A stretch of 15,360 nucleotides of DNA, taken from the IMG/VR virus record IMGVR_UViG_3300029142_000001, positions 64,001 through 79,360 of that record; one strand, 5' to 3'. The notes beneath the pieces are model-generated. The model worked only from the letters and a program-made list of their open reading frames with translations. It was not told the DNA's origin and did not search any database. The position numbers were made by a program, and so were the translations under genes. Below, in pieces: positions 982-9,514 of the stretch (the first letter of the stretch is position 1; every line of letters begins with the position of its first letter). This stretch comes from a virus. Its lineage: Duplodnaviria > Heunggongvirae > Uroviricota > Caudoviricetes.

Positions 982-987
982 ACAATT

Positions 988-1061
988 GCCCCTGTAGCCC
1001 AATAGGAAGAGGCGGTAGTCTTAGAAACTATCTGTTGCTGGTTCGAGTCCAGCCAGGGGTA
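988..1061 (+). tRNA. tRNA-Leu(UAG), short variable loop
   Basis: Acceptor GCCCCTG/CAGGGGT, A73; anticodon arm GTAGT-CT TAG AA-ACTAT; 5-nt variable loop CTGTT; T arm GCTGG-TTCGAGT-CCAGC. Confidence 0.93.
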
Positions 1062-1079
1062 TTATTAAAAAAGGATTAT

Positions 1080-2819: not shown

Positions 2820-3011
2820 ATGAGACAGGCACATTCAAAGAAAAAGGAAATTGAATTTACTCGTGGGAATGCTCGAATTCGTATGAGCATCACAGAAAAA
2901 AATTACAACAGAATTCTTGACATTCTAGCAGATCATGGCTATACTGATATGGAGAATATTGTAAGAAAATCAGTTGTTGTGAGAACTAGAAATATTCGAA
3001 AGAAGAACTAA
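2820..3011 (+). CDS. small basic hypothetical protein (63 aa)
   Basis: Start re-assigned from 2745 to ATG 2820, which follows AGGAG (2808-2812). Confidence 0.7.
   Translation: MRQAHSKKKEIEFTRGNARIRMSITEKNYNRILDILADHGYTDMENIVRKSVVVRTRNIRKKN
2917..2945 (+). promoter_or_regulatory. intragenic sigma70-type promoter
   Basis: TTGACA (2917-2922), 17 nt, TATACT (2940-2945), about 75 nt upstream of tRNA-Leu(UAA). Confidence 0.65.
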
Positions 3012-3022
3012 CGGACATAAAC

Positions 3023-3098
3023 GACCCGGTAGCCCAATTTGGCAGGAGGCAACAGACTTAAAATCTGTACAGTCTGGGTTCGAATCCCAGTCGGGTCA
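3023..3098 (+). tRNA. tRNA-Leu(UAA), short variable loop
   Basis: Acceptor GACCCGG/TCGGGTC, A73; anticodon arm ACAGA-CT TAA AA-TCTGT; 5-nt variable loop ACAGT. Confidence 0.93.
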
Positions 3099-3535: not shown

Positions 3536-3651
3536 GAAGTTGTGGCGGAATGGCATACGCACGGGGGCACCCGATTGACGGTTCGAGTCCGTAAAGTACC
3601 CGGCAGGGGAACATAATGGATCCATTGTAGGTTCGAATCCTACCAACTTCA
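3536..3651 (+). ncRNA. tRNA-like RNA 1 (116 nt): no anticodon loop, two T-arms, two GGCA-capped hairpins
   Basis: Perfect acceptor GAAGTTG/CAACTTC + A73, Leu-type D arm GCG-GAATGGCATA-CGC, T arms at 3578-3592 and 3627-3643, GGCA tetraloop hairpins at 3562-3573 and 3599-3608. Confidence 0.8.
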
Positions 3652-3851: not shown

Positions 3852-3999
3852 GAGGATATAGTGTAGTGGTAGCACAATTCCAGGGTTCAGTTAGAGGTTC
3901 GATTCCTCTCTTCCTCGTTTAAAAAATGTATGGGGGAGTAGTTTAACGGGAAAACGGTTCCATCAGGTTTAAGGTCAAGTTCGATTCTTGATATCCTCG
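3852..3999 (+). ncRNA. tRNA-like RNA 2 (148 nt): two anticodon-less tRNA bodies with cross-paired acceptor strands
   Basis: Two D arms (3861-3875, 3941-3955) and two T arms (3893-3909, 3975-3991). 3852-3858 pairs 7/7 with 3992-3998; 3932-3938 pairs with 3910-3916 (5 WC + 2 GU). Confidence 0.8.
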
Positions 4000-4025: not shown

Positions 4026-4124
4026 ATGCCTAGAGATCTCAGTATTGAACAGATTAGATGCTTGAACAATTGGCCACATGGAACAGTGGGAAGAAACAAG
4101 TTAAAGAAATATATGCTCCTATAG
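4026..4124 (+). CDS. possible 32-aa microprotein
   Basis: GGAG at 4014-4017, ATG 4026, MPRDLSIEQIRCLNNWPHGTVGRNKLKKYMLL*; stop lies inside tRNA-Leu(CAA). Confidence 0.45.
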   Translation: MPRDLSIEQIRCLNNWPHGTVGRNKLKKYMLL

Positions 4125-4188
4125 CCCAACTGGAAGAGGCGTTTCACTCAAAATGAAAATGTTGCTGGTTCGAGTCCAGCTAGGAGTA
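4115..4188 (+). tRNA. tRNA-Leu(CAA), short variable loop
   Basis: Acceptor GCTCCTA/TAGGAGT, A73; anticodon arm TTTCA-CT CAA AA-TGAAA; 5-nt variable loop ATGTT. Confidence 0.93.
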
Positions 4189-4215
4189 TTTTTAAATTTA
4201 CCCAGAGGAAATATT

Positions 4216-4873: not shown

Positions 4874-5308
4874 ATGTCCACCACGACTGAAACCATTATT
4901 ACTGATTTCTCTCTTAGCATGTTCACTGGATCTCTGGATTTCTTCCAGCACAGTCTAATGCGTCGATTCGTCCATAGCGAGGGTGTCCAGTATGTTGCAG
5001 AGCAAGGGCGGGCCTATTGGTTCGTGGATCTCGTGGCCTCTCATGTGGCCTGTGGGAAGCTCAGAGGGCATATCCGGGCTGGGGATATGGTTGAGATTCG
5101 TTTGGTCGAAAACAAGACTCGAAACGGCGGCGCAAAGGCTCAGGTGATCTTCACGGACCCCAATACTGGGGAGAGTCAGAAGCCTGTCTGCCTTCAGCGG
5201 ATCCTTCAGACAGATTTCTGTTTTGATGGGCTGAAGAATCGGACTCTCCGTATGTTCCTCTCTTTTGATGGCTTGCGGTATACTCTTTTTCTGCCCAGTG
5301 AGTACTAA
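4874..5308 (+). CDS. DUF6876-like protein
   Basis: Motifs LSMFTGS..FFQH, SEGVQYVAEQGRAYWFVDLVAS, QRILQTDF and C-terminal LFLPSEY match the family as recalled. Start moved to ATG 4874 (AGGAG upstream). Confidence 0.75.
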   Translation: MSTTTETIITDFSLSMFTGSLDFFQHSLMRRFVHSEGVQYVAEQGRAYWFVDLVASHVACGKLRGHIRAGDMVEIRLVENKTRNGGAKAQVIFTDPNTGESQKPVCLQRILQTDFCFDGLKNRTLRMFLSFDGLRYTLFLPSEY

Positions 5309-5329
5309 AAAAAAATAATCACAGAAAAC

Positions 5330-5358
5330 TTGACAATGGTATTTTTAGTGGCTATTAT
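5330..5358 (+). promoter_or_regulatory. sigma70-type promoter
   Basis: TTGACA, 17 nt, TATTAT; A-rich upstream tract; leader hairpin GCGGG...CCCGC (5364-5382); AAAGGA before ATG 5409. Confidence 0.8.
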
Positions 5359-5408
5359 TAGGGGCGGGCAAATGAGACCCGCAAAGAAACCACCGAAAGG
5401 AATTTGAA

Positions 5409-6332
5409 ATGACGACTGCAACTCTTTCCACCGAAACGATTTCCGAAACCATTCGCTCTGCTTTCGATTTCAGCGTTGATAAGATGCCCCTCTCCGGTCC
5501 GGATAACATGAAGACCCCTCACTATGGTCTGTTCCGTTCGGACAATATGGCAAGCGTTGGAAAGGCCGTGTCCCGCACTTACAATCCCCATACGGTCGAT
5601 GATATCTGTGCCCTTGCAGAAGCAGCTTCAGAAGCTTTTGATGGTGCTTCTTCTGTCCAGGCTCATTGGCGAGATGGTCATTACATCACTGTTGCTCCTT
5701 CCAACGATCAGCAGCGAGCAGTTTTCGATAAGCGTTTTGTTGGTGCTGGAGCCCATGAAATTCGTGATGATTCCGATATCTACATTCCTCGTCTGATCAT
5801 TCGGGCTGGATATGATGGCCGAGCATTCACTGCCCAGCTTGGTATTTACCGTCTTGTATGCCGAAACCTTGCTGTGATCCCTGTTAAGGGCAAGTCGGTA
5901 TCTGCCTCAATCCGTCATACTTCAAATCTTCAAAATCGTGTTGAATCTCTGGCAGAAGATTTCCGCTCGATTCTTGCGAATGCAGATGATGTTGCCGAGG
6001 CAATTGATCAAGCAAACCGTCAGAAGGTCGATATGGCAGCCTTTATTCGGAAGGTTTACCCTCTCCGTGATGATGCCTCTCAGCGAGTTCAGAATGCCTA
6101 TGCTGCCCGTGTGGAGGCAATCATGAGTCGTCTCTACCGCGAGCGTAACGCTCTGGGCCTTCCTTCCGAGGATTACGGCACTGCAACCGCCTGGGAAGCT
6201 TACAACGCCGTTCAGGGTCATGTCCAGCATGAAGCACGCCGGAACAAGCGTCCTAGCCAGTTTGATCGGGCTCTGATGGCCCTTGAGGATCCGGCTGTTG
6301 CACGGGCGGCAGAACTTGCCTTCACTGCCTAA
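5409..6332 (+). CDS. DUF932/DUF945-like phage-plasmid protein
   Basis: GLFRSD, YDG.AFTAQLGIYRLVCRNL, SIRHT and TAWEAYNAVQ motifs are typical of the family as recalled. Confidence 0.8.
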   Translation: MTTATLSTETISETIRSAFDFSVDKMPLSGPDNMKTPHYGLFRSDNMASVGKAVSRTYNPHTVDDICALAEAASEAFDGASSVQAHWRDGHYITVAPSNDQQRAVFDKRFVGAGAHEIRDDSDIYIPRLIIRAGYDGRAFTAQLGIYRLVCRNLAVIPVKGKSVSASIRHTSNLQNRVESLAEDFRSILANADDVAEAIDQANRQKVDMAAFIRKVYPLRDDASQRVQNAYAARVEAIMSRLYRERNALGLPSEDYGTATAWEAYNAVQGHVQHEARRNKRPSQFDRALMALEDPAVARAAELAFTA

Positions 6333-6345
6333 TCCATTCATAAAC

Positions 6346-6369
6346 AAGCCTCCTGACGGGGGCTTTTTT
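6346..6369 (+). terminator. intrinsic terminator
   Basis: AAGCCTCC-TGAC-GGGGGCTT plus T-run, right after the stop codon. Confidence 0.9.
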
Positions 6370-6383
6370 ATTTCCCTCATATC

Positions 6384-6412
6384 TTGATTTTTTAATGATT
6401 AGATGCTATAAT
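6384..6412 (+). promoter_or_regulatory. sigma70-type promoter with extended -10
   Basis: TTGATT, 17 nt, TG-C-TATAAT; AGGAG then ATG 6430. Confidence 0.8.
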
Positions 6413-6429
6413 AGGTGAAGGAGAATATA

Positions 6430-7359
6430 ATGAAGCGTTCAGAAACAAAGTACAATGTTGGAGTGGTCATCGGTCGATTCCAGGTCCACGAACTTCATCC
6501 TGGACATGTAGAGCTTTTGAACTGGGTGAATGACAATCATGATACAATGATTGTCTTTCTTGGAAATTCTCCCGTTCTGAGTCGATCAAACCCTCTTCCA
6601 TATAATGCTCGTCGAATGATGATCCAAGAACAATATCCCGATGCTCTGGTACTTCCTCTGGATGATATGAGAGACGATAGGCTCTGGTCGGATCAAGTAG
6701 ATGATATGATCAGTCGGGTTGTCCGTCCTACCGAGACCGTATGCATTTACGGGTCTCGTGATAGCTTCATTCCTCACTACACTGGAAAGAACCAAACACA
6801 AGCGATGGAAGGGACCGGACATTTCTGGTCAGGATCCGAAGTCCGTGAAAAGATCGCAAACAAGACAGGAAAGAATGCAGATTTTCGGGCGGGGGCAATC
6901 TATGCTGCAAACGGAGCATATCCCCGAGTGATTCCTACGGTAGATGCGGCGGTATTTACAAAGGATGGCGATATCGTAATGGTCCGTAAGAACGGTGAAG
7001 ATAAGCTTCGATTCCCTGGTGGATATGTCGAGCCCGGATCTACATTTGCTTCAACCATTAAGAGAGAAATCCGCGAAGAGGTTGGAGATCTTGAAGTGAA
7101 TGTTTCTTATATTGGTGATCTTGAAATCGATGATTGGCGTTACCGAGGGAATCAGGATATTATTCATACTACAGTTTTCCGAGCGGATATTCTTTGGGGA
7201 GGTATTGGAAGATTCACTGATGTAGCAGAGATTGCGGAAACTGATATCGTAACTCAGACAAATCTACGACTTGGATATAGGGAATCTGTGGTTCCAGAAC
7301 ATCACGCAATTGTTGAAATGCTTATTATGGAAGGAATGCTTGATAATGAACCCGCTTGA
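6430..7359 (+). CDS. nadM: bifunctional NMN adenylyltransferase / Nudix (ADP-ribose) hydrolase, NadM-Nudix (NatV-like)
   Basis: IGRFQ, HPGH (HxGH) and NPL motifs; C-terminal Nudix box GGYVEPGSTFASTIKREIREEVG. Start re-assigned from GTG 6415 to ATG 6430. Confidence 0.92.
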   Translation: MKRSETKYNVGVVIGRFQVHELHPGHVELLNWVNDNHDTMIVFLGNSPVLSRSNPLPYNARRMMIQEQYPDALVLPLDDMRDDRLWSDQVDDMISRVVRPTETVCIYGSRDSFIPHYTGKNQTQAMEGTGHFWSGSEVREKIANKTGKNADFRAGAIYAANGAYPRVIPTVDAAVFTKDGDIVMVRKNGEDKLRFPGGYVEPGSTFASTIKREIREEVGDLEVNVSYIGDLEIDDWRYRGNQDIIHTTVFRADILWGGIGRFTDVAEIAETDIVTQTNLRLGYRESVVPEHHAIVEMLIMEGMLDNEPA

Positions 7360-8368: not shown

Positions 8369-8510
8369 TTCTGGAAAGAAACAGCTTGTAGGAATTGTGG
8401 ATAGATCAACGGAAATTCCAACTCCAACAAAAGATCAAATAGAATTGTTCGGAGTTAAAAGATATTATGTCACAGATGTATTTTGCATGGAACAGGAGAA
8501 AAATAAATGA
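8334..8510 (+). CDS. small hypothetical protein (58 aa)
   Basis: ATG 8334 behind GGGAG; its stop overlaps the next start (ATGA). Confidence 0.55.
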   Translation: MKDTKMLWREFDSGKKQLVGIVDRSTEIPTPTKDQIELFGVKRYYVTDVFCMEQEKNK

Positions 8511-9514
8511 CCATTACAAAGGAAAATAAAACAGTCGTAAAATTAATGGCCATTAGATCTAAAGATGAAATGGTTATTGCTTTTGATGGATATAATAATC
8601 GTTCTATTCCAAATTTTATTTTTAATGATGAATTGAAGGCAGAAAAGACATTTAGTAATTCGTGGTTTAAAATTCCTACATCTGAGATCAAATCTATTCA
8701 TGCTCCTGGAAAGAAGGTTATAGATTCTCAAAAATGGATTCTAAGGGATGAATCTTTGGAAAGTGCTAAAATTCCTTTGACTATTCGATATGATAAAGTA
8801 GAAATGGATGAGGATGGGGATTGGTCAGCACCTGAATATATGATGTATCAGTCGTTGTATAAGTTGGATGTCACATATAAGGAACTTTCACCAGAAGAAA
8901 TCGATTTCGAAATTAGATATATTTGTGATGATCTAAAAGAATTACCGAATGTTAGTAATTTTAAATATCCTACCGGAACAAGATGGGATAGATATGCAGG
9001 CAAGCATCATCCTACAAATATCACATACAAAGATATTGTAACTGGACCACAGGCAGCAATTTTTTATCCTGAAATTCTTCATCCTCTGCTTCCTTGTGAA
9101 TTAACACCGGAGCAATCATTCAAAATTATTCATAATTTCCTAGAAGAAAACATTGATAGATCTGTCGCATCATTCACTAGTTATGAGAATATTCAAATTC
9201 TTCATGTGAAAAAGATCATCGGATTACATACTCCATACTCTCATAAAGTGGATGTATCATCATTTCGATCTCGTAGGCCAAAATATGAAGATAGAATGGT
9301 TAAGACACGAGATAAAGAAATCTATACAATTGATGCAAAGAAGGGTGCAAATATTCCTGTATTCAGTGGAGATAGCCTAGAAGATCTTGACCGTAACATT
9401 TCTACCTATCTAAATGCGTTGATCGAATATATCAATACACCTGTTGTGGATTGCCCTACATGTGATGGATTTGGTATTGTTCATAAAGAATTCAAAGATC
9501 CTAGAGAGGAATAA
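8507..9514 (+). CDS. hypothetical protein with a C-terminal CPTCDGFG motif (335 aa)
   Basis: Long ORF, AGGAG upstream, a single DnaJ-type CxxCxGxG. Confidence 0.85.
   Translation: MTITKENKTVVKLMAIRSKDEMVIAFDGYNNRSIPNFIFNDELKAEKTFSNSWFKIPTSEIKSIHAPGKKVIDSQKWILRDESLESAKIPLTIRYDKVEMDEDGDWSAPEYMMYQSLYKLDVTYKELSPEEIDFEIRYICDDLKELPNVSNFKYPTGTRWDRYAGKHHPTNITYKDIVTGPQAAIFYPEILHPLLPCELTPEQSFKIIHNFLEENIDRSVASFTSYENIQILHVKKIIGLHTPYSHKVDVSSFRSRRPKYEDRMVKTRDKEIYTIDAKKGANIPVFSGDSLEDLDRNISTYLNALIEYINTPVVDCPTCDGFGIVHKEFKDPREE

Follow-up and report, generated by a model that had tools for sequence, protein, structure and literature searches.

A predicted anticodon-less, tRNA-Leu-like RNA with two T arms from a phage tRNA cluster and the conserved family to which it is assigned

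Our subject is a 116-base gene resembling a transfer RNA (tRNA), read directly from the sequence at positions 3536-3651 (+) of a 15,360-nucleotide stretch of phage DNA (IMG/VR virus record IMGVR_UViG_3300029142_000001, positions 64,001 to 79,360; hereafter the window), where it lies within a phage tRNA cluster. Judged by sequence comparison, its product (the window RNA) is a member of a conserved family of phage RNAs that resemble tRNA-Leu, carry two T arms and have no anticodon. We think it probable that this is a phage-specific non-coding RNA family derived from class II tRNA-Leu, whose members act in trans as look-alikes of tRNA(Leu). We conclude that the window RNA would be a non-decoding RNA with ends matured in the manner of a tRNA, and it is plausibly leucylated; the steps that go past a non-decoding RNA with tRNA-type ends are ones that we infer. 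The parts of the element are given below.

3536-3542 (+): 5' strand of the acceptor, GAAGTTG, with perfect 7-bp pairing to 3644-3650 (helix 1; 7/7 pairs covary among 51 relatives)
3543-3544 (+): U8 and G9, with U8 present in 50/51 relatives
3545-3560 (+): class II leucine-type D arm GCG(G)-AATGGCAT-(A)CGC, with A14, A15, G18, G19 and A20a in the loop
3562-3573 (+): hairpin A, CGGG-GGCA-CCCG, a stub that stands where the anticodon stem would be; its loop has 4 nt and there is no anticodon
3574-3577 (+): linker ATTG, as read directly from the sequence
3578-3592 (+): T arm 1, ACGG-TTCGAGT-CCGT, with a 4-bp stem (ACGG/CCGT) and the T-loop TTCGAGT
3593-3598 (+): linker AAAGTA (family consensus nAAGTA)
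3599-3608 (+): hairpin C, CCC-GGCA-GGG (helix 5 of the family)
3609-3614 (+): linker GAACAT (family consensus GAA(A)A)
3615-3626 (+): arm D, AATG-GATC-CATT, palindromic, at the position of a class II variable arm, with U48 at 3626
3627-3643 (+): T arm 2 (canonical), GTAGG-TTCGAAT-CCTAC, abutting the 3' strand of the acceptor (helix 7)
3644-3650 and 3651 (+): 3' strand of the acceptor, CAACTTC, and discriminator A73; CCA is not encoded and TTT comes next

The D stem has three base pairs (GCG/CGC) plus G13.A22, and A26 is the last base of the segment 3543-3561. After position 26 comes a hairpin with four base pairs and a loop of 4 nt, not the 5-bp stem and 7-nt loop of a decoding tRNA, and about 65 nt, comprising two GGCA hairpins, an extra T arm and a palindromic arm, substitute for the anticodon and variable arms. 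An earlier reading made from the letters alone (the sequence-only reading) had described the perfect 7-bp acceptor, A73 and a leucine-type D arm with A14, A15 and GG, followed by hairpin A, T arm 1, hairpin C, the palindromic arm and T arm 2, and each of these was located where it had been placed. Its label of GNRA tetraloops has to be dropped. Both loops in the window are GGCA, which is not GNRA because the third position is C, a pyrimidine, where a purine is required. The Rfam tRNA model (RF00005) matches exactly 3536-3651 with 39.9 bits (E 4.5e-7; gathering score 29) and leaves the anticodon arm unaligned; this match emerges in a sensitive search only and is overlooked by the default filters of Rfam. 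In the sensitive Rfam 15 search of 3536-3651 no family besides tRNA was matched, and no intron or ribozyme, while ARAGORN called neither a tRNA nor a transfer-messenger RNA (tmRNA) there.

A blastn search with the window sequence against 50,697 phage records found no homolog, tblastn with a neighbouring 1246-aa protein found no related locus and blastn with three family members retrieved nothing. Additionally, a pattern scan derived from the adjacent tRNA-Leu(CAA) gave no homologous locus, and in the related-locus search the upstream open reading frame (ORF) had no relatives outside the same phage. Pattern scans did find relatives. Viral contigs were scanned for GGCA followed by two T-loops at short spacing, and a script kept those candidates in which a single acceptor stem closes both T-loops, which yielded RNAs of the same layout with lengths of 114-121 nt. 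Scanning for two T-loops also caught the anticodon arms of ordinary tRNA-Leu(CAA) and tRNA-Ser(CGA) genes (e.g. L107 5644-5731), and these were removed by a filter on how far from the element's 5' end the first T-loop-like match lies. As a guard against ascertainment bias, the pattern of a second viral scan was taken from arm D and T arm 2 only. This gave 35 viral stretches, and the members newly found in this way again have T arm 1 and both small hairpins. Run over 596 Gb of prokaryote genomes, the same pattern returned two true members, both on contigs of metagenome-assembled genomes (MAGs) beside tRNA genes: one (L288) in a nine-tRNA cluster and the other (L280) on a 4.5-kb contig with one tRNA. 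Of the 19 prokaryote matches, the remaining 17 fell by chance in coding DNA or in CRISPR-like repeats. Because 35 viral stretches stand against two true members in all of the prokaryote genomes, we regard the family as phage-specific. Metagenomes of lakes, activated sludge and sea water contributed 21 further distinct sequences when scanned, and 51 distinct sequences from IMG/VR, JGI/ENA metagenomes and the two MAG contigs were aligned. Since MAFFT alone misplaced hairpins A and C, a model-based alignment was used instead.

The place of the window RNA in the family was assessed with a model, R2, that was made without the window sequence from alignment A5, which holds the loci found by the pattern of arm D and T arm 2. 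R2 gives the window RNA 81.4 bits (E 1e-17), compared with 24-35 bits for the ordinary tRNAs of the window. Across about 2.8 Mb of loci the true members score 60-124 bits and everything else, other tRNA-like elements included, 51 bits or less. In the alignment of 51 sequences 96.4% of the cells hold standard pairs, and 26 of the 30 pairs have changed on both sides. The covariation score of 0.746 compares with 0.220 on shuffling (0/500 as high) and with 0.05-0.13 when the partners are slid. Compensatory changes occur in all seven helices, and two sub-samples concur with the full alignment, which supports the proposal in the sequence-only reading that the structure is maintained rather than decaying. 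That reading had also named an absence of covarying homologs, or a match to a described family, as results that would count against it; homologs with covariation exist, and the sole described family matched is tRNA itself. The alignments are model-fitted and the counts lean towards the model for that reason, and an independent hairpin search, sequence by sequence, found the same compensations.

The individual helices can be followed through the family. In hairpin A (helix 3) all four pairs have compensatory changes and 99.5% of the cells are paired. In T arm 1 (helix 4) the two outer pairs covary and GG/CC and TTCGA-N-T are kept, and this arm is conserved also in the sample that was gathered without any demand on it. 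Hairpin C (helix 5) has compensatory changes in 3/3 pairs, arm D (helix 6; AGTA-TGG-TACT in the family) covaries in 4/4, and T arm 2 (helix 7) is 100% paired. Arm D covaries as a local hairpin, which disfavours the alternative in which the AGTA linker would pair with its TACT strand. The window holds all seven helices in the family order (acceptor, D, hairpin A, T1, hairpin C, arm D, T2). Six of them are in the family register and that of arm D is shifted, in a form, AATG-GNTC-CATT, common to the window and its closest relative L297. It also has all of the conserved unpaired residues, namely U8, A14/A15, G18G19, TTCGANT, nAAGTA, U48 and A73. Besides U8, the family keeps U48 (51/51), a D loop of the AAYGGTA type with A14, A15, G18G19 and A20a, the UGG loop of arm D (46/51) and the discriminator A (31 of the 33 distinct members counted).

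Other positions vary more. The sequence-only reading had seen an exact duplication of a module joined through ATTG, which does not hold as a family feature; ATTG is common to L297 only, and the linker ahead of T arm 1 is AGAT or GGAT in most members. The loop of hairpin A has 4-12 nt, being GGCA in most members and 8-12 unrelated nt in others. That of hairpin C is GGCA in 33/51 and CGCAA in 6, the remaining loops being GNRA-type or other, with true GNRA loops (GAAA, GGAA) in a few relatives. Changes in the loop of hairpin A tend to go with changes in that of hairpin C, which is a lead only and is confounded by ascertainment and phylogeny. Reduced and related layouts were also observed. One contig (L296) has a 101-nt copy (607-707) without hairpin C and arm D together with a full 118-nt copy (1519-1636), and L158 3547-3651 is a 105-nt reduced form without hairpin C. 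At L141 3015-3137 and L247 8744-8864 an anticodon-less tRNA-like element of about 75 nt is followed at once by a second acceptor/T-arm minihelix; its anticodon arm consists of a GGCA loop on a stem of 6 bp and the whole resembles an unfused two-T-arm layout.

One could also see in the element the remains of a decaying gene, or of two tRNA genes fused by accident, under no selection for function. Such an origin would be at home in phage tRNA clusters, where homing endonucleases and rearrangements abound, and L141 and L247 have an apparently unfused version with two tandem mini tRNA-likes. A relic is hard to reconcile with 51 diverged relatives from lakes, sludge and sea water in which 96% of the cells are paired and every helix is compensated, nor would it be expected to keep its single-stranded motifs and a CCA status in agreement with the neighbouring tRNAs. 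We regard this explanation as effectively refuted by the covariation and give it next to no weight.

RNAs of the family are predicted to be unable to decode codons, as had been proposed for the window RNA, because a 7-nt loop with U33 on a 5-bp stem is found in no member of the 51; the only internal 7-nt loop is that of T1. An odd decoding tRNA could be drawn in two ways. T arm 1 could serve as the anticodon arm (UUCGAGU, anticodon CGA, serine UCG), given that GACGG-TTCGAGT-CCGTA in the window can be drawn as a 5-bp arm with a 7-nt loop, U33 and G37, or hairpin C could do so (GCA), since 3596-3612 comprises 17 nt directly ahead of a variable arm like that of class II. The first drawing is contradicted by the family, in which the T1 loop reads TTCGANT with N being A in 22, G in 17, T in 11 and C in 1, so that the equivalent of position 37 is a pyrimidine (T or C) in 12/51. 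Its stem has 4 bp, its GG/CC and TTCGA are the signature of a T-loop, and a hairpin of 12-18 nt would separate position 26 from the supposed anticodon stem. As for the second drawing, the loops of hairpin C have 4-5 nt and never 7, there is no U33, and two members have no hairpin C at all. Moreover, the L236 locus also has an ordinary tRNA-Ser(CGA), and there is no ARAGORN call on the window RNA. We therefore find a decoding role scarcely credible.

A decoding tRNA could also arise after splicing, if the element were a pre-tRNA with an unconventional intron whose halves are joined by the RtcB or Rnl ligases of the phage to give a normal tRNA. The phage does encode RtcB, Rnl1-like and Rnl2-like ligases, and true tRNA-within-tRNA genes exist in other phage contigs (L077, L027). 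Against this, no contiguous excision from the window RNA or from the family consensus yields a 5-bp stem with a 7-nt U33 loop. The inserted hairpins are closed locally, with no bulge-helix-bulge and no group I core, and Rfam gave no match to an intron or ribozyme. An intron is thus a very improbable explanation as well, and a non-decoding RNA is preferred over both.

The ends of this non-decoding RNA were proposed to be tRNA-like, and here the comparison with neighbouring genes is informative. CCA is encoded by the family element at 8/8 loci whose tRNAs encode CCA and at 0/16 loci whose tRNAs do not, an agreement at 24/24 loci with at least 4 tRNA genes each, where the loci are related and the count overstates their independence. 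The window RNA, without CCA, fits the phage's own tRNAs, of which 1/9 has it. This concordance is as expected for a 3' end that is matured and used like that of a tRNA.

The most substantial alternative is that the element is RNA punctuation, i.e. a tRNA-shaped mark for cutting by RNase P and RNase Z, which would part the small ORFs from the other RNAs in one polycistronic transcript of the cluster, or a cap that protects messenger RNA (mRNA) ends against exonucleases, with no function in trans. The genomic setting gives this some appeal. The window RNA begins 7 nt past the stop of a 117-aa ORF and ends 16 nt ahead of a 59-aa ORF, and it is flanked by tRNA-Leu(UAA) and tRNA-Leu(CAA). In a consensus scan the following site was matched, by pattern only.

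2917-2945 (+): promoter-like site TTGACA-17-TATACT, 11/12

It could drive a unit of tRNA-Leu(UAA), the ORF, the window RNA, the next ORF, the next tRNA-like RNA and tRNA-Leu(CAA), and no terminator-like site was found on the + strand up to 4400. This single promoter-like site without a terminator, and the position between the two ORFs, speak for punctuation. Family members elsewhere lie within or at the head of tRNA clusters, frequently between genes or beside tRNA-Leu genes, and several loci of 7-14 kb have the family element without any tRNA. However, an acceptor/T-arm minihelix would suffice as a cutting mark, and the family conserves or covaries T arm 1, nAAGTA, hairpin C, the UGG-loop arm, U48 and the leucine-type D loop in 51 sequences. 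The encoded CCA tracks the tRNAs, which matters for a 3' end that is used and not for a cut site, and such concordance would be hard to explain for a mere cutting mark. We consider punctuation unlikely, and the trans-acting look-alike of tRNA(Leu) remains the explanation that we prefer.

Its leucine character is seen first in the D arm. When the D arms were compared with those of 1,542 phage tRNAs, Leu was the best match for 16/31 members, and 149 of the 310 top-ten matches were Leu compared with 11% of the reference set. The published determinants of the E. coli leucyl-tRNA synthetase (LeuRS) are A73, the A15-U48 Levitt pair, G18G19, A20a and the elbow of the D and T loops (PMC9976931). Its sequence determinants are present in the window and the leucine identity set (A73, A15-U48, G18G19, A20a) is conserved in the family, in line with the leucine identity elements claimed by the sequence-only reading. 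According to the account of Larkin 2002 given in PMC9976931, tRNA-Leu without anticodon and variable arms is still charged. The minimalist E. coli tRNA-Leu constructs described there consist of the upper body only, are charged and edited by LeuRS, and depend for their charging on A73 and the D/T-loop elbow, and they are thus a functional precedent for an anticodon-less leucine-type RNA. As that account presents them, they are artificial and have no added domain, and charging of the natural family is a prediction.

From these features a sequence of steps can be proposed. It is very likely that the window RNA would be transcribed in a mixed tRNA/mRNA operon and cut by RNase P and by 3' processing, and that it would get or encode CCA and persist as a stable RNA of about 119 nt. 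The upper body would fold like a tRNA and bear an extra domain of three hairpins (the second T-arm, the GGCA hairpin and the UGG-loop arm). A second elbow is suggested by the second T-loop and by several conserved loops that contain GG. In the arrangement that we have in mind, which we can put forward only tentatively, the D loop and T-loop 2 would form the normal elbow and T-loop 1 a second elbow-like knot with a conserved GG-containing loop. All of the E. coli determinants are present and neither the anticodon nor the variable arm is needed, and on this ground the host LeuRS may charge the family RNA, for which we estimate somewhat less than an even chance. Having no anticodon, the RNA would be of no use in the ribosomal A site; it would instead occupy or divert, in trans, a host factor that recognises the upper body of tRNA. 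A more specific version, which we regard as doubtful, is that a leucylatable mimic of tRNA(Leu) with a second elbow serves as a decoy for a host tRNA-directed defence enzyme or as a Leu donor for non-ribosomal transfer. The targets of such a decoy would be an anticodon nuclease, a 3'-end nucleotidyl- or pyrophospho-transferase toxin, or an acetyltransferase toxin.

There are several observations that weigh against this explanation or against parts of its evidence. The single-sequence thermodynamic fold of the window RNA is no better than that of shuffles (z = -1.05), and T arm 1 has a pairing probability of only about 0.17 in its nearest-neighbour ensemble. The family fold has -35.1 kcal/mol and the minimum free energy is -36.9 kcal/mol, a gap of 1.8 kcal/mol; the support for the predicted fold is comparative, not thermodynamic. 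In the R2 alignment 3/4 pairs of the window's arm D are non-canonical in the family register. In alignments A4 and A7 the conservation of the T-loops and of GGCA was imposed to some extent by the search patterns, and the four contigs of the same phage are 100% identical and therefore carry no information on selection. With regard to leucine, the acceptor stems of the family are unlike those of co-resident tRNA-Leu genes. The determinants were defined for E. coli, and the rules of LeuRS differ between organisms, with A73 being no determinant in Streptomyces (PMC6614811). Finally, no conserved partner protein was found next to the family.

Comparison with known RNAs helps to place the family. 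It shares with class II tRNA-Leu (RF00005) the 7-bp acceptor, U8, a 3-bp D stem with G13.A22, the canonical T arm and A73, as well as a D loop of A14 A15 .. G18 G19 N A20a, with U48 as Levitt partner, an extra arm directly before the T arm and an encoding among phage tRNA genes. It differs by having no anticodon arm or loop and by adding a second T-arm and a small hairpin between the D arm and the variable-type arm, so that its RNAs have 115-121 nt where class II tRNA-Leu has 83-90 nt. Of the RNAs described so far, T5 RNA2 and T4 RNA C come nearest in kind. RNA2 (125 nt) and RNA1 (144 nt) of phage T5 (AY543070) are experimentally known and annotated as 'tRNA-like stable RNA with unknown functions'. 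RNA2 likewise has two T-arm hairpins within one acceptor stem and a small NNN-TGG-NNN hairpin, and RNA1 has a leucine-type D arm with a large insert. However, RNA2 scores 23-28 bits with the family models R1 and R2 (27.8 with R2) and RNA1 about 17 bits with R1, which is the level of ordinary tRNAs. The interior of RNA2 is not alignable with the window and only the general layout is common to both; the acceptor of RNA2 has 8 bp, its D stem has 5 bp and is not of the leucine type, and a long-range stem surrounds its T arm 1. Homologs of T5 RNA2 were found in uncultured phages (L103 3709-3828 and L213 1134-1255) with the interior motif from TGAAAGAATGGTTC to TCCGCA kept, and T5 RNA2 therefore also defines a conserved family.

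The tRNA cluster of phage T4 does hold stable RNAs, as the sequence-only reading had stated, and rnaC (139 nt) and rnaD (119 nt) are alike to the family in being small stable RNAs of a T4-type tRNA cluster; their roles remain unassigned (PMC3014915, PMC9697503). The comparison with them that this reading had proposed gave homology to neither. RNA C has an acceptor-like stem and a T arm in its 3' part but scores 12.5 bits with R1, while rnaD has no R1 match and no T-loop; there is no sequence similarity, and both are without a leucine-type D arm and a second T arm. The tRNA-like domain of tmRNA is also an aminoacylatable mimic of tRNA without an anticodon, with ends processed in tRNA fashion. 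It differs in its length of about 350 nt, tag ORF, pseudoknots, absence of a D stem and G3.U70 pair for the alanyl-tRNA synthetase (AlaRS), whereas G3.U70 is found in 13/51 family members and pair 3-70 of the window is A-U (A3538-T3648). The YrlA module of bacterial Y RNA (RF02553) is likewise non-decoding, has a tRNA-like elbow and is present in some phages (PMC4201824), but has a permuted order of arms and a stem that binds Ro60. Its Rfam model has no match on 3536-3651 and a weak one of 15.5 bits on the neighbouring element. The family is absent from Rfam 15 and we found no published description of it; it may be among the 10,006 candidate structured RNAs of viruses that were catalogued in 2023 (PMC10690425), without a name there. 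Stable tRNA-like RNAs encoded in phage tRNA clusters are a kind already known, of which this family is a distinct and much better constrained variant.

The wider setting in the phage can be described as follows. The window makes up the final 15.4 kb of an IMG/VR virus contig of 79,360 bp, which is about 37% complete. Because this contig has 33 tRNA genes called by ARAGORN, RNA ligases, genes for nicotinamide adenine dinucleotide (NAD) and Gad1, the window RNA is placed in the tRNA/accessory region of a large lytic-type phage. Apart from the three ligases, the phage encodes Nampt, NadM-Nudix, Gad1, DUF932 and DUF6876.

G000 42574-43845, 26777-27874, 31339-32313 and 28151-29533, and window 6415-7359 and 8507-9514: RNA-repair/NAD/Gad1 gene set

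Nampt and NadM-Nudix are an NAD-rebuilding pair in this phage, and the repertoire of RNA-repair and counter-defence genes is dense. Such genes fit an arms race over tRNAs and are no proof of a role for the window RNA. In other contigs, genes for Seg-type GIY-YIG homing endonucleases and for calcineurin-like phosphoesterases recur around family members, and an RNase R-like gene was seen there once. The latter is the RNase R/II-like gene at L263 4756-6753 (-), with RNB, CSD2 and S1 domains; it and two genes for calcineurin-like phosphoesterases lie within 2-4 kb of a solitary family member with no tRNA.

Several further oddities were seen in the window and in other phage contigs. A second tRNA-like oddity lies at window 3852-3999, 4 nt past the 59-aa ORF; the Rfam tRNA model gives 38.3 bits at 3852-3917 with 11 nt in the place of the anticodon arm, and there is a further acceptor/D-like start at 3932. 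All three tRNAs of this phage with Leu anticodons (UAG, UAA, CAA) have 76 nt, a short variable loop and a class I shape, while its tRNA-Met(CAU) and one tRNA-Asn(GUU) have 86 nt and long variable arms, so that the usual class assignments are swapped.

Window 987-1062, 3023-3098 and 4114-4189, and G000 49272-49357 and 62499-62584: class-swapped tRNAs

The G+C content of window 5001-7000, which covers the DUF932 and NadM-Nudix genes, is 0.49 compared with 0.34-0.39 elsewhere in the window, and this part may have been recently acquired. In L208 and L180 a tRNA called by ARAGORN with the anticodon CUA (amber-suppressor type) lies 142-145 nt downstream of the family member, which hints at stop-codon recoding in these phages. 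At L077 ~4971-5120 (+) and L027 ~4994-5144 (+) a complete tRNA gene is nested in the anticodon loop of another, and processing of the inner tRNA would cut the outer one into halves. Phage contigs also hold, near their tRNA clusters, a type II hammerhead ribozyme (69 bits) and a skipping-rope RNA (60 bits).

L110 9248-9316 and L077 1708-1777: hammerhead and skipping-rope RNAs

That phage tRNA clusters encode stable tRNA-like RNAs without an assigned role has been known since the 1970s, examples being RNA C and D of T4 and RNA1 and RNA2 of T5. The family described here is compact, widespread in aquatic phages and strongly constrained by covariation, with ends of the tRNA type, and it is a recurrent class of phage RNA genes that escapes both tRNA gene finders and the default filters of Rfam. 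It retains exactly the features that LeuRS reads and discards the part that the ribosome reads. The long-standing question about phage tRNA-like RNAs becomes testable with one synthetic RNA of 119 nt, and the questions that the family opens are those of charging, of binding partners and of phage protection against tRNA-targeting defences. If the doubtful version with a decoy or a Leu donor is true, these RNAs would be a new class of RNA-based counter-defence or of aminoacyl carrier.

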